Below are positions 21,110-30,440 of a DNA stretch of 30,444 nt, piece after piece. Source of the stretch: a virus (taxonomy: Duplodnaviria > Caudoviricetes). The translations under genes and the position numbers were made by a program. The notes under the pieces are model-generated. The model saw only the letters and a list, made by a program, of their open reading frames with translations, made no database searches and was not told the origin of the DNA. The first letter of the stretch is position 1. Each line of letters opens with the position of its first letter. The stretch spans positions 1 through 30,444 of IMG/VR virus record IMGVR_UViG_3300031965_000115. One strand, given 5' to 3'.

Positions 21110-22309
21110 CTAGTCGTCGTTCTTGTTGAGGCAGGTGGTGTCACTCTGGCCCGGGGTGAGTTGAAAATCGTCGTGGCTGATGCCCGGCGGGTCAAACTGG
21201 CAGTGATTGTCGAGAGCCCCACCGTCGAAGTTCAGCCAGATGCCTTCTTCGCCCTCGCAGATCGACTGCTGCGCCTGATCGTCGCACTCCCGGTTGAACG
21301 CCACGAAATCCTCCTCCTGCTCCCCGCAACTGACGCGGTAGTAGCAGAGACCCTCCGTCTCGCACTCACACGGCTCGCTGTTAGCCGTGACAATCGTTTC
21401 GCAGCGTTCCTCCTGAGTGCAGGAGTTCACTTCGCATGTCGTGGTTGAGATTGACTGCGTCCGCGTACAGGTCGGCCGGCCGTTTTCATCCTCGCCTGTC
21501 GCGGTGCAGTCGCCGAACGCACCCTCCTCGATGACCGGCTCCTGGGGAATCCACTCCTCCTCGCACGGACACTCGACCTCGCGCTGATCGATCTCGGTGA
21601 TGATCCACTCTCGCTCTTCGCACCCGTTCGATTTGGTCACGGTCGTGGAGATCTCGAAGCACTCGAAGCAAGGCGCCTGGATGAGCAAGGATGGTAGGTC
21701 GATCTGGGAGCACTCGACGACGTCGCCCTCTTCGGGCTCTCCCCTCTTGATAATCTCCCACTCGCCGGGCTCGCACTCGCAGTACTGCTCGTCGGGCGCG
21801 TACACCAGCTTCTGGCCGCCGAGTCCCCAATGACCGATGTGCTCTCCCTGCCCGGCGGTGAAGTCGACCTGGACCTTCCGCTCTCCTCCCTCGCAGAGAT
21901 CAACGCCGATCTTCACGGGATCGCAGATGCTGTAGACGCTGACGGTGTCGCCCGTCTTCACGACCGCGTTCCAGGATCCCCAATCGTTGGTGTGCAGGGG
22001 CGAGGTGCAGACGGCACTGACGTGGTGTGGAATGGTTGTGGTAAAGGTGCAGGTGCCGGCCGCGTCGCAGACAACCGACGTGGGACCGGGACCACCTCCG
22101 GGATCGGGCGAAGGCTCCGGCGTGATGACCACCGGCGTGACCTGCTGGGGTGCCGGCGTCGAGACGACCACCGGATCCGGCATCGTGGGGCTCTTGCTGC
22201 CGTCGCACGATTGTGTGTACGTCATATACAGACCGAGCATTCCTGTGATCGCCACCACCAGGATTGCACGGTCACTCTTGCGTCGTCCAAACTTCTTTCG
22301 CTTCGTCAT
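21110..22309 (-). CDS. Membrane-anchored, acidic, cysteine-rich repeat protein
   Basis: Basic N-terminus, TM helix and Pro/Thr linker; 27 Cys by manual count; two roughly 70-aa CxCE..W repeats; AAGGAG SD. Confidence 0.7.
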   Translation of the reverse strand: MTKRKKFGRRKSDRAILVVAITGMLGLYMTYTQSCDGSKSPTMPDPVVVSTPAPQQVTPVVITPEPSPDPGGGPGPTSVVCDAAGTCTFTTTIPHHVSAVCTSPLHTNDWGSWNAVVKTGDTVSVYSICDPVKIGVDLCEGGERKVQVDFTAGQGEHIGHWGLGGQKLVYAPDEQYCECEPGEWEIIKRGEPEEGDVVECSQIDLPSLLIQAPCFECFEISTTVTKSNGCEEREWIITEIDQREVECPCEEEWIPQEPVIEEGAFGDCTATGEDENGRPTCTRTQSISTTTCEVNSCTQEERCETIVTANSEPCECETEGLCYYRVSCGEQEEDFVAFNRECDDQAQQSICEGEEGIWLNFDGGALDNHCQFDPPGISHDDFQLTPGQSDTTCLNKNDD

Positions 22310-24261: not shown

Positions 24262-25338
24262 CTAGTCTTCATTACGCCACCTCCACTTGTCGTAGCGTCT
24301 CTGGAGCCACTCGCTCATCGCCAGGCCCCAATCGGTTCCGAGATACGGCTGAAGTGTTGCGAGGGGTCGCGTGAACCGGACTGACGAGTCATACATGCGC
24401 CAGTCTCTGTGAGCCCGTAGCACATCGCGGTAGACTCGCACCCAAAGTGGCGCGTCAACGAAGTTGACCCCAGGAAATCCATCGGCGTCCTCGAGGATTC
24501 GTCCGATCCATTCGTCAATAGGAACATTGCTGTTGCTATAGACGTGGTCCGCCCTGACGACTATGTTGTTGAAGATAGTTGGCTGAACCAATTCGAGAGA
24601 GTACGGATCAATTGATCTCAGACCGTCGTCCGACTGGACTGACGAACTACGTGGCATGTCAAGAAGCTTCTGGTACCACTCCTCGTAGATGTGCCAGTTC
24701 ACACTCACCTGGACGTATCGCCCCTCAGTGCATCCAATCTCGTGAGCCATATACGAGAGGAGCATGGACCAATGTACCGCGTTGGCTCCATAGGCTCCCC
24801 ACACGAGATCGTTCGAGCGGCACAAGACGGTCATGTCGAGCTGACCGTTCGAGCGTCGTTGGAACGTCGCGGTCACGTTGCAGGGTGCGTCTTTCGTCTC
24901 ACGGTCCAAGTCGTAGTCAGAGTCCCACACCTGGAGCACACAACGTCGGTCATTCGGATAGTTGGTGAGTCGGCGAATGATGACACGAAGTTGATCTTGT
25001 CCAAACGTTCTCCGCCACCTGTAACCGTAGGCTCCTTGAAGGATCTGGCCGTCATCCGAGTACTCGGCGAACTGCTTCGTGTATCGAAGCAACGGCTCTA
25101 GATCCTGTCGACCCGCGAGCATCCACAGCGACTCGTAGAGATGGAGCGCGGGGTTGGCGTCGCGTACGGGCCAGAAGATCACTCGCTCCCACGGTCGCTC
25201 GTAGACGGTAACCACGGGGCCTGGCTCGATCAGTCGAACCGCTCCGTTCCGACTGCCCCTTCTCACTCCCTCTTCGTCAATCAAGCGGAGTGCTTGGGGG
25301 AGTGCCTGGTGAACGTTGCGGACGTGAATGACTTTCAT
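24262..25338 (-). CDS. Thymidylate synthase family; probable dUMP hydroxymethyltransferase
   Basis: ESLWMLAG, GAYGYRW, RR.VL..WD, catalytic PC, RSND..WG..GAN and NWHIY motifs; sits in the hypermodification cluster. Confidence 0.85.
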   Translation of the reverse strand: MKVIHVRNVHQALPQALRLIDEEGVRRGSRNGAVRLIEPGPVVTVYERPWERVIFWPVRDANPALHLYESLWMLAGRQDLEPLLRYTKQFAEYSDDGQILQGAYGYRWRRTFGQDQLRVIIRRLTNYPNDRRCVLQVWDSDYDLDRETKDAPCNVTATFQRRSNGQLDMTVLCRSNDLVWGAYGANAVHWSMLLSYMAHEIGCTEGRYVQVSVNWHIYEEWYQKLLDMPRSSSVQSDDGLRSIDPYSLELVQPTIFNNIVVRADHVYSNSNVPIDEWIGRILEDADGFPGVNFVDAPLWVRVYRDVLRAHRDWRMYDSSVRFTRPLATLQPYLGTDWGLAMSEWLQRRYDKWRWRNED

Positions 25339-25478
25339 GTCAGCTCCGAGCAGGCCCCGAAGCGCCCCCTGGGGTTTCGCCTCGGTAGCCGTTTGACGAG
25401 AACAGCCGGGTGTGTTCTCAGGACCTGCCGGGGGTCACCCGGGCAGTAGAACCACCCTGACCTGCTCGCAGCCGACAT
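25337..25478 (-). ncRNA. Candidate cis-regulatory structured RNA upstream of the TS-like gene
   Basis: A 20-bp closing stem (19 pairs including 2 GU) covers the SD and the first two bases of the AUG; three internal hairpins; loop-loop complementarity. Confidence 0.5.
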
Positions 25479-25483
25479 CATTC

Positions 25484-25897
25484 TCACGTTGATAGTTCCA
25501 TGAAGAGTACACCCTCGTAGCCGACAGTCTTCGCTAAGTTCTGGAGACGACGCTCGTTTGTCTTAGTGAGGGGGATCTCTCCGTCCCTCATCAGGATGTA
25601 GAAGGTTTCGGGATTCGGGAGACGTAGCCGTTTGATAATCCCGTCGCGACCGTTGGCTGAAAGCACAGCAGTTCTAAACTCGTTTGTAAGCACAGCACGA
25701 GGAGCCAGACGACGACCGGATCGACGACGGCCATCCTGGATGAGCTCTGGACGAGGAAGTCCAAGCCTATCGGCAAGATAATCATTGACGAGAAGAGACA
25801 CGGATACTCCAAGCTTGGAAGCACGACGTGAGATTTCTCGCTTGATTCTTTCGGTGACGTAGACCCCGAGGTAGCGATCACGTCTTGATTTCCTCAC
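25484..25897 (-). CDS. Ribbon-helix-helix DNA-binding protein
   Basis: YLGVYVTERIKREISRRASKLGVSVSLLVNDYL fits the RHH beta-alpha-alpha pattern; GTGA overlap. Confidence 0.7.
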   Translation of the reverse strand: MRKSRRDRYLGVYVTERIKREISRRASKLGVSVSLLVNDYLADRLGLPRPELIQDGRRRSGRRLAPRAVLTNEFRTAVLSANGRDGIIKRLRLPNPETFYILMRDGEIPLTKTNERRLQNLAKTVGYEGVLFMELST

Positions 25898-26721
25898 GGA
25901 TATCTCCTCTTCAGTCGTTCGCCTGCTGTCGCCCGCTCGTACTTGTCGAACTCACAGGCCCAATGCTCGACCTCTCTCATCTCCCATCGTGGCCAGATGT
26001 TGGACCATGCTCCACGTGAACAGTCAAGGATGTTCTTCATCACGTCACAGAGTAGGACCTGCCCTACGTTCGATCCTCGATGATATACGTGGGGATCGTT
26101 ATGGGTCACCCGACCAAGTCCCCGAGCACACCCGGGACCAGCTGAAGCCCACGTCATGATGTCGCGCGCATCAGAGAGGACGGGAGTCCATCGCAGGTCG
26201 GTGATAATTTCGTAGGCAAGGAACCGACCGAGCCCGGGAACGGCGAGGAGCGATGTGTGCGCTTCTTCGAGAGACGCTCCGCTCCACGAGGGATAGATTT
26301 GTCTGATGATTGGTAGCGCTTCCCCGATCATCTCGAGCAATCCGTCGAGTTTGTCGAATCCGGTTGGAGTTCTAATCATGTAGGCACCGGTGACCACAGG
26401 TCGAACATCATGGAGGCGACGACGAGCCTCTTTGCGATCCCACCCATTCAAGAGTAGATCCTGGATGATCTCGCCGATCTCGACGCGGTTGAACCATCGG
26501 AAGATCACCGTCGCTGCTACAACATGAAGACCGTCAAGCTTGGAACGAACATGATCACGGAACCACACGGTTGTCCGATCGTCTTCCCGATGTACGTTAC
26601 AGAACCGCCACCGTTGGAAAGCCGGATCATCAGTCCACGGCGAGGGATCGCCAGCATCTCGCTTAAGCTTGATGCGGTACCGCTCCCGTGCGGTCTCGAA
26701 GAATCGGTCGATCAGTTCCAT
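25894..26721 (-). CDS. aGPT-Pplase1 family / 5-hmdU DNA kinase helical-domain protein
   Basis: ER.RI..KR..G...PWTDDP....RFCNVHREDDRTT, FRWFN, GLGRFLAYE...DL, GPG..RGL and EH..CEFDKY. ATG 26721 overlaps the kinase stop. Confidence 0.85.
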   Translation of the reverse strand: MELIDRFFETARERYRIKLKRDAGDPSPWTDDPAFQRWRFCNVHREDDRTTVWFRDHVRSKLDGLHVVAATVIFRWFNRVEIGEIIQDLLLNGWDRKEARRRLHDVRPVVTGAYMIRTPTGFDKLDGLLEMIGEALPIIRQIYPSWSGASLEEAHTSLLAVPGLGRFLAYEIITDLRWTPVLSDARDIMTWASAGPGCARGLGRVTHNDPHVYHRGSNVGQVLLCDVMKNILDCSRGAWSNIWPRWEMREVEHWACEFDKYERATAGERLKRRYP

Positions 26722-27272
26722 CCTAGAGCTCTTAGACATGCGATCGCAGCCGACTCGCGATCCTTGCACCATTCCACTCTGACACCGGCCTTCTCGAGAT
26801 TACCGGCGTTCCGGATGGTGCCTCTCGCGCGGACAATCGTATTCTTCGGATTGACAGGATCCAGGTTGCCCCTCTTCGCTCTCCGTTCCTTGATTGCATT
26901 GAGACAGAGCTCTACCGGAACGTCGATGATCACGACGAGGAGATCGTGTTTCTTCGCGAGCTCTGCTGCGCGACGCCAATCACTTTGGATCAGAGCGCCA
27001 CCCTCGTAGATGACGTCATATCCAATCTGGGCAGCGTGCCAAATGTGATTGTAGATCAGGTCGATCTTCGGGATCGTGTCCCCGCCCCCGCAGGCTGTTT
27101 CGTAATGGCCAACAACCCAGAGGTCATGTCCGTCCGGCCGCACACACCGATAGCCGATTGGTTGCTTTCGTCCCTCAATGTGAACCGGTCGTCGTTCGTC
27201 GTAGCGGTCCATCACACGTCGTACGATCGTGCTCTTTCCGCTGCCGAATGTACCTCTTGGATTGACGATCAT
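26712..27272 (-). CDS. P-loop kinase of hypermodification clusters (candidate 5-hmdU DNA kinase)
   Basis: NPRGTFGSGKST, VVGHYETACGGGDTI, VIYEG and R..RG lid; adjacent to the aGPT-Pplase1 gene. Confidence 0.75.
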   Translation of the reverse strand: MIVNPRGTFGSGKSTIVRRVMDRYDERRPVHIEGRKQPIGYRCVRPDGHDLWVVGHYETACGGGDTIPKIDLIYNHIWHAAQIGYDVIYEGGALIQSDWRRAAELAKKHDLLVVIIDVPVELCLNAIKERRAKRGNLDPVNPKNTIVRARGTIRNAGNLEKAGVRVEWCKDRESAAIACLRALGWN

Positions 27273-27313
27273 GAGCGTTCACGCTGGTTAGAATTCTCGG
27301 AACGTTTGACCAT
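27269..27313 (-). CDS. 14-codon leader minigene
   Basis: TAAGGAGG SD, MVKRSENSNQRERS; its TGA overlaps the kinase ATG. Confidence 0.4.
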   Translation of the reverse strand: MVKRSENSNQRERS

Positions 27314-27362
27314 GAGAGCCTCCTTATATACTATTTTTAACTGGACGTAAAGCTTTTTTATT
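27306..27362. promoter_or_regulatory. AT-rich overlapping sigma70-like promoters
   Basis: Minus strand: TTTACG (27346-27351), 17 nt, TATAAG (27323-27328), with an upstream A-tract. Plus strand: TTGACC (27306-27311), 17 nt, TACTAT (27329-27334). Confidence 0.5.
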
Positions 27363-27382
27363 AGCTCAAGTGTTGACTCCGT

Positions 27383-27402
27383 AAAACCGAGCCAGGCTCG
27401 GC
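27383..27402 (-). terminator. Rho-independent terminator candidate
   Basis: GCCGAGC-CTG-GCTCGG followed by TTTT directly after the HD gene stop; the U-tract is short. Confidence 0.5.
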
Positions 27403-28001
27403 TAAAACATCGTCGTATCGCGGTTCAAGTCGCGCCATCGTACGAGAAACGCGGTCTCTGCTTCCTCCCACGTCATGTGCGGACGCCACAGACCGGAGGG
27501 AATCAACACTTCGTCGACCGCTTTCTTGTACTCATGGCGGTTCAGTGCTCCGTAGTTCTTGATGACTTGTCCACGATTGAAGGCAATCTCAAACTCGAGC
27601 CGGACCATTGTGCGGTCGGCCTGGGAGACAGAGTCGGCCTGAATGATCGGGAGCCCGAACGCAGTGTAGACCACAGTCTGCGCGCGATGTTCCGCGTCGC
27701 GATAGCCAGACATTTCGGGCGACGATTTGACCCACTTCGTCATGTCACCGAGGTACGCTTCGGAGCCGTCGTGGAAGAGTCCTTGCAGCGCTTCACGGTG
27801 CGACGCGACTGCGCCAGCCAACAGCGAGACGCCAACACTGTGCTGCGCTACGGATATTGGGAACCGAGAGTGGCCCGCGAAGCGGCTGCACAACGCGAGC
27901 GCATGCGCAATGTCACGAACGTCGATGTCTTCTCGTTTCAAGTTGAGTGGGTTGACATCGAAGCCAGTGAACGTCGTCATGAGCACAGGTTTTATCTCCA
28001 T
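27402..28001 (-). CDS. HD-domain nucleotide phosphohydrolase (YfbR/YfdR-like)
   Basis: DIAHAL...RFAGH...SVAQHS...LFHDGSEAYLGD...AD. Confidence 0.85.
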   Translation of the reverse strand: MEIKPVLMTTFTGFDVNPLNLKREDIDVRDIAHALALCSRFAGHSRFPISVAQHSVGVSLLAGAVASHREALQGLFHDGSEAYLGDMTKWVKSSPEMSGYRDAEHRAQTVVYTAFGLPIIQADSVSQADRTMVRLEFEIAFNRGQVIKNYGALNRHEYKKAVDEVLIPSGLWRPHMTWEEAETAFLVRWRDLNRDTTMF

Positions 28002-28453
28002 AGTTGATCATTCTCCTCTTCGAGGAGGAAGTCCTCGAACGCGCGGTTCTTGAGAAGCTTTGTCCCCCGGGCGATACGGGCCTCGGCGATCAGGTCGGCC
28101 ATCGGACGATTGGTGAAGTAGTACATCGCTAGGACTGCGACGAGTGCCGAGCGGTTCCAACCGGAGTCACAGTTGATCATCACTGCGCCGAAGGACATCG
28201 TCTTAGCGACCTCGCGGGCAATAGCTCGAATACGCTGAGGAACAAGCTTGGCGCCGGAGTCGTTCAACGGTTCATGACAATACGCCATCCCAACTGTTCG
28301 ACACGCGGCGGCAAGTGCCGGATCGTCGATCAAGGCAACGTTCATGATGAGTCTGACGTCATGGAGGCTCAGTACGGAGAGGACTGCTGAGCTATTGAGT
28401 TTCCTCGTATGAGGACGGATGTAGAGGCGATCATGTAGTCGATACAGATTCAT
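27992..28453 (-). CDS. Cysteine-dependent (CX5R) dual-specificity/PTP-fold phosphatase
   Basis: VMINCDSGWNRSALV catalytic loop; upstream PLND acid loop; R....N..F C-terminal motif. Confidence 0.8.
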   Translation of the reverse strand: MNLYRLHDRLYIRPHTRKLNSSAVLSVLSLHDVRLIMNVALIDDPALAAACRTVGMAYCHEPLNDSGAKLVPQRIRAIAREVAKTMSFGAVMINCDSGWNRSALVAVLAMYYFTNRPMADLIAEARIARGTKLLKNRAFEDFLLEEENDQLWR

Positions 28454-29427
28454 GACTTCTCCTTCCAGAGCGGAAGCTTTTTCCTAAATGTCCCCTCGGT
28501 TAGCATGACTTGTTCGTTGGTCGGCGAGCTGTACACGGGGAGAAGCCCAAAGCGTGGAGCTGACGGTGCGTCACAAGACGCACAGATCCCGAACGCACGA
28601 TCAGCTTGATACAGCCTCGCACGAGCCGCTTCCATCCTGGGATGACGCCAGATCTCTCTCAGGGTCATCTCGCATACGTTTCCAATCACGAACTCCTGAC
28701 GCCAGTCGTCGCAGCATAATGGCACAGAGCCATCAGAATGGATCACGAGCTCACGGAATGGCCGCGAGCACGTCCGCCGAAGTGACTCAGGAATCTGGCT
28801 TGTCGGGTTGGCACCCGCGTGTGTTTTCACGAGACGTGAACCGTGCTCACCATCATGAACTGACAGATCGTCCATCACACAGAGAATCTTCTTCCCGCGC
28901 TGATTGCTGTAGGGTGATCGGCCCCGACCGGCCCAGTCACGGAAGAAGTCGACGACTTCCGCACCAACAAAGGCGAGTGCTTCCTCACGAAGCGCATCGC
29001 GTCGCTCCTTTGGGTAGTATGTATCAAGGAGCAGGAGATTGAGACCCGCGTCGAAGAGTTGAGTCACACGCTCTTGTAGATGCCCACGAAGCACGTCGCC
29101 GTTCGTTGTGAGCATCAGGCTAGCCTTTGGGAGTCGATCGCGGAAGTGAGCAACGATGTCCCTCGCCTTCGGATGTATCAACGGTTCCCCACGCATGGCG
29201 AACTCAACGCGAGCCGTCGGGCAGAAGTCGACCATCTGCTCGACGATTTTCTCGACCGTCCCGTCTGACATATACTCGTAGTTCCCCGGGCCACTCCGGA
29301 TAGCGTTGAGTCCGCAGAAGTGACAGAGTCCTCCAGAGCCGGAGCCGAAGCGCATGGAGCAGCCGGTTACGAGCTCCGGCTGGATCACCCAGGGTCGACC
29401 ACCCTCGTCAGCGCGTAGCTGCCTCAT
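28450..29427 (-). CDS. Radical SAM enzyme with SPASM/twitch domain
   Basis: C-X11-C-X2-C (CSMRFGSGSGGLCHFC), RGEPL and TTNG; C-terminal CSRPF...DG.V.LCC.D....GNV....L.EIW...CASC. Confidence 0.85.
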   Translation of the reverse strand: MRQLRADEGGRPWVIQPELVTGCSMRFGSGSGGLCHFCGLNAIRSGPGNYEYMSDGTVEKIVEQMVDFCPTARVEFAMRGEPLIHPKARDIVAHFRDRLPKASLMLTTNGDVLRGHLQERVTQLFDAGLNLLLLDTYYPKERRDALREEALAFVGAEVVDFFRDWAGRGRSPYSNQRGKKILCVMDDLSVHDGEHGSRLVKTHAGANPTSQIPESLRRTCSRPFRELVIHSDGSVPLCCDDWRQEFVIGNVCEMTLREIWRHPRMEAARARLYQADRAFGICASCDAPSAPRFGLLPVYSSPTNEQVMLTEGTFRKKLPLWKEKS

Positions 29428-30440
29428 CCGTTCCTCCTGATCGGGTGAGAGAAGTCCCCCGTCTCTCGCGTTGCGTGGTAGTCATAGAGGCTATCAGTCC
29501 AAGTGTATCCGTACTCCGAGACGACGCGTCCGAGGTAACCAAGCCGTTCACCCGGGTCCCAGTCCTGGACTTCGCCGAGTGACCACTCGGGATGAAGCCG
29601 ACGACGCGTCTTCATGTGTTCCGTTTCTGGTTCGTGCCCGGGATACGGGAGAGATCCCCAATACGGCTCGATAGAGCGCTCATAAGAGAGCTCGCTGTCG
29701 AGTGACCGGCCGGGATACTGACGCTTCGTGAGGAAGGAGGCCTTGTATTCACAAAGCATGACCTCGTATTGAAACCACGAGAGCCTCATCAGCTCGGGTC
29801 TGGAATTCTTTAGATAGAGTGCGCGCTCCTCAGCTTCAATCACGGCACGATAGGAGTCGTCCCTTGGATTGTCTGTCCGTTCCAGTACCATGTTCAGGCA
29901 CGTCCTCGGGGACCACCCATTCTTCGCCCGTATATCGCGACACTCTGCTCGGATGAGTCCAATCCGATACCAGCACTCGCAGAGCTTCGTCGCTGCGTAA
30001 CGCCCGACATGGGGCAGACGCATTGCGAAGCGCCACACTTGCTCAAAGTCGTCCTCATCTTCGAGCCAATCCAGGGCCTCAATCGTCGTAGCCACTCCGT
30101 CGCAATAGTCGACCATTCGCTCGCCGCGAGTCGAGTCGAGCGCAACGGACTTTCGTTCACGTCGGAAGCGGAGTCCATCCCAATGCTTCTGGAGGAACAA
30201 CAGGAGTTTGTCGGGACCGGGCGACTCTGGGAATCGGCACCATGTTGCCTCGGCTGTCGGGACGTTGTAGAATCCAACGTAGAGGGCAATCCGCCAGATC
30301 TGCTGCTCTCGCGGGAGCGGTCCACACATCTCGATGACAGCGCGCAGATGCGGATCAGGTCCGCCGCAGAGTTGCTCATATCGACAGAACTCCTCGAAGA
30401 GTCGGAGATGGTTGGGATTCGTCATGTTAGGTTTTTTCAT
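29424..30440 (-). CDS. Amino acid:DNA transferase-like protein (aGPT-Pplase2, HhH-glycosylase fold)
   Basis: GPDPH, FRRERK, HhH LPHVGRYAATKLCE, E..LCEYK and YPG..LD motifs; clustered with the kinase and the TS-like gene. Confidence 0.7.
   Translation of the reverse strand: MKKPNMTNPNHLRLFEEFCRYEQLCGGPDPHLRAVIEMCGPLPREQQIWRIALYVGFYNVPTAEATWCRFPESPGPDKLLLFLQKHWDGLRFRRERKSVALDSTRGERMVDYCDGVATTIEALDWLEDEDDFEQVWRFAMRLPHVGRYAATKLCECWYRIGLIRAECRDIRAKNGWSPRTCLNMVLERTDNPRDDSYRAVIEAEERALYLKNSRPELMRLSWFQYEVMLCEYKASFLTKRQYPGRSLDSELSYERSIEPYWGSLPYPGHEPETEHMKTRRRLHPEWSLGEVQDWDPGERLGYLGRVVSEYGYTWTDSLYDYHATRETGDFSHPIRRNG

Follow-up and report, generated by a model that had tools for sequence, protein, structure and literature searches.

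IMGVR_UViG_3300031965_000115 is a virus contig record of 30,444 bases, the whole of which was analysed and is called the window below, and its right part holds what is almost certainly a cluster for thymine hypermodification (Table 1). The phage is a tailed one, because terminase, portal and head genes were found by Pfam and PHROG in the left part of the window, together with primase and SNF2 genes. The stretch is also present in two runs labelled soil metagenome, from which it may derive. The initial annotation had named seven cluster genes as contiguous and mostly coupled, and they are so: all lie on the minus strand and mostly overlap their neighbours, in the order, read from the right edge, AADT-like transferase (AADT), radical SAM enzyme, PTP-fold phosphatase (PTP), HD protein and, after a gap of 129 bases, P-loop kinase and aGPT-Pplase1 (Pplase1), followed by two small open reading frames (ORFs), the TS-family enzyme (TS), DUF3310, a nuclease-like ORF and an exonuclease. 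The spacing is -4 bases for AADT and radical SAM enzyme, -4 for radical SAM enzyme and PTP and -10 for PTP and HD protein, so that an AADT/PTP module and a radical SAM gene resembling that of BtrN, the 2-deoxy-scyllo-inosamine dehydrogenase, are joined in one coupled run with no glycosyltransferase in view. The families given by the initial annotation were confirmed by hidden Markov models (HMMs) or by identity to characterised proteins for the core enzymes, the HD protein and the radical SAM enzyme; AADT and PTP score under the Pfam cut-offs. Judged from its sequence, the cluster is real and a variant of the known thymine pathway, and the resulting base may be undescribed.

Table 1. Predicted genes of the modification cluster, listed from the right edge of the window
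Feature	Position	Strand	Remarks
AADT-like transferase	29424..30440	-	338 residues; PF18724 E 0.0025, 18 bits (cut-off 26.2); Cys230 and Glu226 kept
Twitch radical SAM enzyme, BtrN-like	28450..29427	-	325 residues; PF04055 E 8.5e-7, PF13186 E 1.4e-14
PTP/dual-specificity-fold phosphatase, CX5R	27992..28453	-	153 residues; PF00782 E 2.6e-5, 24.5 bits (cut-off 33.5)
HD-family 5'-deoxynucleotidase	27402..28001	-	phrog_318 E 2.4e-37; PF12917 E 0.0011
P-loop 5-hmdU DNA kinase	26712..27272	-	186 residues; 45% identity to PaMx11 gp49, E 1e-42
aGPT-Pplase1 (PF18723, now HMUDK_hel)	25894..26772	-	PF18723 E 5e-39
137-residue ORF, no family	25484..25897	-	small DNA-binding look by eye; homologue in L164
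50-residue ORF, unverified gene	25335..25487	-	4-base overlap with both neighbours; no family match
TS-family dUMP hydroxymethylase	24262..25338	-	358 residues; phrog_5131 E 2e-103

Only 4 bases separate the AADT start from the right contig end, and one public contig continues for 1,145 bases beyond this edge; searches of viral contigs found no near-identical contig that would extend the window. In the viral locus L164 the gene order from AADT to exonuclease is that of the window, but without the radical SAM gene, and a DNA polymerase gene stands upstream of the AADT. The arrangement of AADT, PTP and radical SAM genes is repeated in L082, L165 and L167, and because of this recurrence, in L164 minus the radical SAM gene, the arrangement in the window is not considered to be due to chance. 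A promoter and terminator scan gave 5 and 6 sites, respectively, where 2.5 and 3.5 were expected; a second transcription unit is unsupported, since the scan found no such site on the coding strand of the gap between HD and kinase genes. By eye, this gap (27273-27401) is AT-rich; it contains a small hairpin with a run of T's behind it, as well as an ORF of 14 codons whose sequence overlaps the start of the kinase gene.

Sequence comparison places the transferase in a divergent clade of AADTs, distinct from the characterised enzymes. PF18724 is matched at E<=0.001 by 91 of 109 aligned members of this family, the HMM of which picks up M6 gp51 (E 5.4e-6, in a set of 15 proteins), with the Cys in register, and a single PDB chain with an AADT domain (E 0.034). 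Transfer has been demonstrated for the proteins of clade 2 (AADT), which rely on a Cys and a Glu close to it; the clade-1 protein gp55 of M6 is dispensable for the first adduct (PMC8989533, cited here, like most papers below, for the available part of its text). The initial annotation, which had ascribed the displacement step to HhH-fold transferases, is corrected in this respect. C230 and E226 of the window enzyme align to C247 and E243 of the PaMx11 enzyme, and the residues described from the structure of PaMx11 gp46 (PMC11472151, available part) align to D29, Y54, Y58, E95, K152, E226 and C230, and Y148 takes the place of W146 and E231 that of the Lys immediately following the catalytic Cys; this Lys helps to bind the glycine carboxyl in YuA (PMC13458397, available part). 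The model has a pLDDT of 95; the fold assignment is taken from sequence profiles. An alignment scan of viral contigs yielded 53 loci, i.e., 43 lineages at 90% identity, and in a quick tree the window enzyme falls into a subclade of five rows with an SH-aLRT of 100. A search of GTDB genomes with a single pattern, which is weak evidence, returned no confirmed copy of this clade, and no cultured phage with the AADT/PTP module was found, the AADT queries reaching only remote proteins of Gordonia and Microbacterium phages. Two such loci from cultured actinophages, L218 (Gordonia phage CaiB gp1-5) and L222 (Microbacterium phage Kozie gp1-4), hold TET, AADT, kinase and oxidoreductase genes and no PTP; in their AADT, the catalytic Cys is followed by Asp. 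The high-GC loci L180, L192 and L205 have AADT and PTP, and kinase, TS and TET were not detected in their available DNA.

The PTP is adjacent or fused to the AADT in 42 of the 43 viral lineages, among which the kinase occurs in 39, TS in 24 and TET in 6. Judged by gene neighbourhood, this AADT clade has a fixed partner in the phosphatase, which is not the loose tailoring gene for which it had been taken. The CX5R loop is present in the window protein and in 51 of 52 relatives listed, and the PTPs of the window subclade have their own variant of the motif. Fusions of AADT and PTP account for 6 of the 120 homologues listed (149 were found), and PF00782 matches three of them at E<=2e-5 and three at E 0.003-0.03; a 354-residue ORF in L188 (11056-12120) scores as both PTP and kinase, indicating that the PTP can also be fused to the kinase. 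The PTP is missing from the related cluster of L003, where a HAD hydrolase gene lies on the upstream side of the AADT. None of five control lineages of the M6/PaMx11 type, a small set with one locus short, has PTP or INO1, and the window PTP had no match at E<=0.01 among PDB sequences. The PTPs are basic, with a median isoelectric point of 9.0, a property too crude to place them on DNA.

INO1, the myo-inositol-1-phosphate synthase, lies near the AADT in 22 of the 43 lineages and in 20 of the 37 with at least 3 kb of upstream DNA. It is the commonest extra neighbour, usually stands at most two genes upstream of the AADT, occurs on several branches of the quick tree and was confirmed by PF01658 in all five cases tested (E 1e-32 to 1e-38). 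The reverse search from INO1 gave 65 loci, i.e., 49 lineages, and AADT, PTP and kinase are nearby in 38 of the 48 viral INO1 lineages with enough downstream DNA. Other extras among the AADT lineages are methyltransferases (12/43) and a GFO/IDH/MocA dehydrogenase (2/43), which would suit a hydroxyl-rich ring, and no gene that would make a different donor is found repeatedly among the 43. The window AADT retains 57 of the 67 columns that are conserved among INO1-linked AADTs, and its pocket-motif columns are the same as theirs. The lineage L201 is nested among INO1-bearing ones and carries a radical SAM enzyme of the present family, yet its complete 82-kb genome is without INO1 and without a TAGT match; since INO1 can be missing in such close kin, supply of inositol by the host is favoured. 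An inositol-type ring on thymine appears likely because the AADT travels with the PTP, INO1 is found in half of its relatives and a BtrN-like radical SAM gene adjoins. The initial annotation had expected an amino acid or amine as the displacing group; the comparative evidence suggests that the donor is probably neither and points to inositol or its phosphate, and the radical SAM enzyme is similar to enzymes acting on cyclitol or sugar rings. For the subclade of the window itself, we lean slightly towards an inositol-type donor.

Among 50,697 phage records there were 19 INO1 matches. The cultured Caulobacter phage Cr30 (L219, gp114-gp129) has TET, AADT, TAGT, INO1, kinase and, by eye, a HAD-like ORF within about 9 kb. 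Ralstonia phage RP13 (L221, ORF118-127) has INO1, Pplase1 and a HAD-like ORF, with a divergent TS elsewhere and a 590-residue ORF that looks AADT-like by eye and has no profile match. In Stenotrophomonas phage Mendera (L220, gp37-gp43), INO1 and a HAD-like ORF stand among the 7-deazaguanine genes for GTP cyclohydrolase, QueC and QueE; its genome gave no AADT-clade, TS or TET match, and inositol may decorate another base there.

The radical SAM enzyme is, by its fold match and cysteine pattern, a twitch enzyme with one auxiliary cluster of the BtrN/SpeY type. A full SPASM domain has a seven-Cys motif for two clusters; only five conserved Cys are present in the C-terminal domain, and the SPASM assignment of the initial annotation was rejected. 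The best Foldseek match of the model (pLDDT 96) is BtrN (4m7t, E 4.7e-15), with the next family at 2.5e-7 and SpeY fifth, and an hmmsearch of PDB with the family profile gave BtrN at E 5e-23 and the next protein at 6e-5. Eight Cys are invariant in all 114 rows of the alignment. The spacing of the SAM-cluster Cys23/35/38 is canonical in 108 rows, and six rows, which include the window twice, have a Gly-rich insertion of eight residues. The C-terminal residues are Cys220/238/239/282/285, of which Cys220/238/282/285 align to four Cys that we take to be the auxiliary-cluster ligands of BtrN; the fifth, Cys239, is invariant where BtrN has Phe. A Cys-Cys pair is common in the twitch/SPASM domain. 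The epimerase NeoN has an extra Cys as its hydrogen donor (PMC10991966, available part), and a cited paper, judged by its title alone, describes the same for HygY. Because the invariant Cys239 could return hydrogen as in NeoN, epimerisation would by analogy be about as open as oxidation of the BtrN kind. Given an inositol-type donor, the chances that the enzyme would act on the donor ring are even or slightly better.

Orthology of the radical SAM enzyme to M6 gp53 (profile E 0.61, hhalign probability 1%) and to SP10 gp185 (profile E 0.36) was rejected. With the PTP missing from all five M6/PaMx11-type controls, the earlier view that this enzyme and the phosphatase lie outside the characterised pathways was borne out. 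About 64 clear relatives were present in the protein collection (68 matches), and the family has 242 matches in viral and at least 392 in metagenome sequences; among the 50,697 phage records there was no close relative, only six weak matches at 20-21%. Being widespread yet without a close relative in phage records, the family would mark a large class of modified genomes. Longer, fused forms were not seen in the 7,998 candidates that passed E<=1e-20, which is weak evidence. Extra genes near the radical SAM gene in L047, L049 and L133 and in L032, L037 and L085 encode a sulfotransferase-like protein (by eye, with no Pfam match), methyltransferases of the FkbM and Methyltransf_24 families and a second radical SAM family, whose copy in L032 has 752 residues and, by eye, an intein-like insert.

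The core of the cluster is, as had been claimed, that of the known thymidine hypermodification phages. The TS shares 45% identity with M6 gp58 and 46% with PaMx11 gp51, its active-site region is nearly that of M6 and differs from that of the canonical Cr30 enzyme, and it retains the Asn that presumably selects dUMP over dCMP; this TS-family dUMP hydroxymethylase is the likely source of 5-hydroxymethyl-dU (5-hmdU). The kinase matches PF18748 only at E 0.004, and its PaMx11 orthologue gp49 is listed as a 5-hmdU DNA kinase in Table 1 of PMC8989533 (available part). Its PHROG label of terminase small subunit was rejected, since M6 gp54 and PaMx11 gp49 are labelled likewise; the 5-hmdU DNA kinases of the window, M6 (gp54), PaMx11 (gp49) and Cr30 (gp114) are all mislabelled in this way via phrog_800 or RefSeq records. 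The pyrophosphorylated intermediate of the initial annotation is outdated and was rejected, because these kinases add a single phosphate and yield the singly phosphorylated 5-PmdU (PMC8989533). From the pathway described in the same paper, the role of the HD protein is likely the removal of dTMP. Pplase1 is 44% identical to PaMx11 gp50, aligned from residue 18, and its true start is probably 26721 or 26739. In the loci anchored on the radical SAM gene (L001-L160), it is found in 42 of 44 TS lineages and in none of 8 TET lineages, and 40 lineages with TS and Pplase1 have no kinase in the locus. This suggests that its role is tied to full substitution by 5-hmdU, and because of this distribution it may restore unmodified sites to T. 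The distribution poorly matches the Pfam name 'kinase helical domain'. The 137-residue ORF is without a match in Pfam, PHROG and NCBIfam and has a syntenic homologue in L164 (28% identity, E 5e-11).

We hypothesize the following pathway. The TS would make 5-hmdUMP and the HD protein would drain dTMP, as their orthologues and the published pathway suggest, with thymine replaced by 5-hydroxymethyluracil, and the kinase would produce 5-PmdU in DNA, as expected from its 45% identical PaMx11 orthologue. Cys230 of the AADT would then attack C6, the phosphate would leave, and a hydroxyl of inositol or its phosphate would join the exocyclic methylene; the mechanism is adopted because of that described in the available part of PMC8989533, the inositol donor only because of gene context. 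The donor would be myo-inositol phosphate supplied by the host. Its phosphate would be removed by the PTP, to go by the neighbourhood of the genes, either on the DNA adduct or on free inositol phosphate prior to transfer. The radical SAM enzyme would, in view of its fold, abstract a ring hydrogen, leaving a ketone or an epimer, and Pplase1, from its co-occurrence with TS, may return leftover sites to T. That this whole chain holds, from host inositol phosphate placed on activated thymine through dephosphorylation to oxidation or epimerisation by the radical SAM enzyme, we rate somewhat short of an even chance. A more far-reaching form of it is doubtful: a DNA base with a thymine cyclitol ether that is oxidised (inosose) or epimerised on the polymer by a BtrN-like radical SAM enzyme, with one enzyme family serving both inositols installed by transferases and sugars installed by glycosyltransferases.

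Several findings weigh against this pathway, some of them bearing on the donor and others on the radical SAM step. As to the donor, INO1 was found neither in the 30.4-kb window nor anywhere in the records of L164, L165 and L167 (75%, 69% and 41% complete) and L003 (100%), and the five-row AADT subclade of the window has no INO1-bearing member. The AADT of Cr30 is of the canonical clade and not that of the window. The forward and reverse INO1 counts are not independent, because the query had been derived from 17 INO1 proteins linked to AADT and some contigs are common to both sets of loci, and the change from Lys to E231 is only weak evidence on the donor, because the AADTs of CaiB and Kozie, which have as neighbour an oxidoreductase similar to the FAD lyase, also have an acid at this position. 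Another phosphorylated alcohol, such as a sugar phosphate, glycerol phosphate or phosphoserine, from which the PTP would strip the phosphate and whose polyol the radical SAM enzyme would tailor, agrees with a subclade that is never accompanied by INO1 and has its own PTP motif, with the 10 of 67 conserved columns that differ from the INO1-linked AADTs and with the donor switch brought about by two pocket residues in a related enzyme (PMC13458397, available part). However, the tabulated pocket-motif columns are those of the INO1-linked members and no gene for making such a donor recurs, and we regard this reading as quite improbable. An amino acid or amine donor, as in M6, ViI and PhiW-14, would continue the pattern of the characterised thymine transferases, all of which use amino acids or diamines (PMC8989533, PMC13458397); the PTP, the basic character of which fits DNA binding, would then erase leftover 5-PmdU, the radical SAM enzyme would isomerise the adduct, and the product would be a known base or a close analogue. 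Y148 matches the Tyr noted for PhiW-14 in the available part of PMC11472151. We give this reading little credence, as the radical SAM enzyme matches BtrN and is unrelated to M6 gp53, the PTP is fused mostly to the AADT while M6 and PaMx11 work without it, and the presence of INO1 in half of the lineages would be left unexplained.

As to the radical SAM step, the gene neighbourhoods of the family were compared in the best 80 of 242 viral and the best 80 of 392 metagenome matches, i.e., 117 lineages, and counted in the 67 that have 2 kb on both sides, the window not being among them. A glycosyltransferase is present in 66 of the 67, within 2.5 kb in 64, while TS or TET is present in 52, AADT in 4 and INO1 in none; the glycosyltransferase profiles were made from the same loci, with labels that rest on Pfam at E 9e-15 to 0.008 and for one family on inspection by eye. 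Among the full-length relatives, the closest five (L082, L003, L002, L004 and L084) all have AADT and an adjacent TAGT-type gene, the enzymes that stand beside INO1 (L177, L182) form a separate long branch, and L164 has the cluster of the window without any radical SAM gene. These points also speak against the proposed pathway and would be met if the enzyme served a TAGT-type glycosyltransferase beyond the contig edge and tailored a sugar on the AADT adduct or on free 5-hmdU, or the nucleoside-diphosphate-sugar donor. Such a pairing of this radical SAM branch with AADT and TAGT is seen in L082, L165, L167, L003 and L084, and at least 1,145 further bases lie upstream of the window edge; but our HMMs found no glycosyltransferase in the six frames of the window, the slot after the radical SAM gene that is taken by the TAGT gene in L082, L165, L167 and L003 is occupied in the window by PTP and HD genes, and synteny with L164 predicts a DNA polymerase rather than a glycosyltransferase upstream. 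Moreover, family members without a detected glycosyltransferase occur in L169, L177, L182 and L201, and on the separate branch with AADT and PTP it was undetected in 4 of 5 lineages, two of which have INO1. We hold an off-contig glycosyltransferase to be unlikely, if still a serious competitor. The enzyme could also be the remnant of a lost glycosyltransferase module, the base being the plain AADT/PTP product, likely inositol-thymine, that L164 would make; L164 and the TAGT genes beside all the closest relatives would agree with this, but the gene is full length and coupled on both sides (-4, -4), the eight invariant Cys are kept and the model is of high confidence, and we consider this reading improbable. 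The gene contexts taken together suggest that the simplest common substrate of the family would be a hydroxylated six-membered ring on the thymine methyl, installed by a glycosyltransferase or by the AADT.

A full-text literature search on DNA modification and twitch enzymes listed no paper on an inositol-bearing base or on a BtrN-like enzyme acting on DNA, although an earlier bioinformatic mention is possible and supplements lay outside the search. In bioRxiv 10.1101/2023.12.21.572611, the word inositol is part of the name of a structural hit, as it is in one passage among its three occurrences in PMC13326640, and in PMC13229309 inositol, radical and phosphatase do not occur. The one radical SAM enzyme described in the available part of PMC8989533 as installing a DNA modification is the isomerase of M6. 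If the proposed pathway is true, the inositol donor, the phosphatase step and the ring oxidation or epimerisation of the BtrN type would each be new DNA chemistry, and the chemistry of aminocyclitol antibiotics would be used on a genome. Inositol-thymidine would not differ in mass from glucosylated hydroxymethyl-dU, and surveys that rely on mass only could misread it. From the formulae, the calculated masses are 420.138 for inositol-O-methyl-dU, 500.104 for the phospho form and 418.122 for the keto form.

Outside the cluster, the minus strand at 21110-22309 has a 399-residue ORF rich in Cys, Pro and Glu with an N-terminal hydrophobic stretch, for which Pfam and PHROG gave no match.

Among the closest known systems is the 5-AcNmdU cluster of PaMx11, which comprises gp46 (AADT), gp47 (FAD lyase), gp48 (acetyltransferase), gp49 (kinase), gp50 (Pplase1), gp51 (TS) and gp52 (HD). 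The window shares with it the order of kinase, Pplase1 and TS as well as the catalytic Cys and Glu of the transferase; unlike PaMx11, it has a PTP and a twitch radical SAM enzyme in the cluster, and its transferase is remote from gp46 (family HMM E 0.019, hhalign E 0.028) and has Glu in place of the glycine-binding Lys. Among the 11 cluster proteins in the DNA in view, gp47 and gp48 had no significant match (best E 0.099), and the pyridoxal-phosphate (PLP) decarboxylase gp52 of M6 had none. The 5-NedU pathway of M6, i.e., gp51 (AADT), gp52 (PLP decarboxylase), gp53 (radical SAM isomerase) and gp54 (kinase), resembles the window in having a radical SAM gene between transferase and kinase, but gp53 is a 480-residue protein like the spore photoproduct lyase (PMC8989533, available part) and has no detectable similarity to the window enzyme. 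In the Acinetobacter phage SH-Ab 15599, dapT uses a diamine donor from host metabolism, and a few pocket residues change the donor of clade 2 (PMC13458397, available part); phosphatase and Pplase1 are absent from the main text of that paper. For phage glycosyltransferase clusters, the available part of bioRxiv 10.1101/2023.12.21.572611 mentions epimerases, phosphotransferases and secondary glycosyltransferases and no SPASM/twitch enzyme. The radical SAM family of the window is at home in clusters of this kind, which carry TET or TS, whereas the window shows no glycosyltransferase. BtrN (PDB 4m7t/4m7s), which acts on a cyclitol, reaches a TM-score of 0.75 by target to the window enzyme; unlike BtrN, with which it shares 21% identity, the latter is about 60-80 residues longer, has the eight-residue insertion in its main motif and stands in a viral DNA-modification context.

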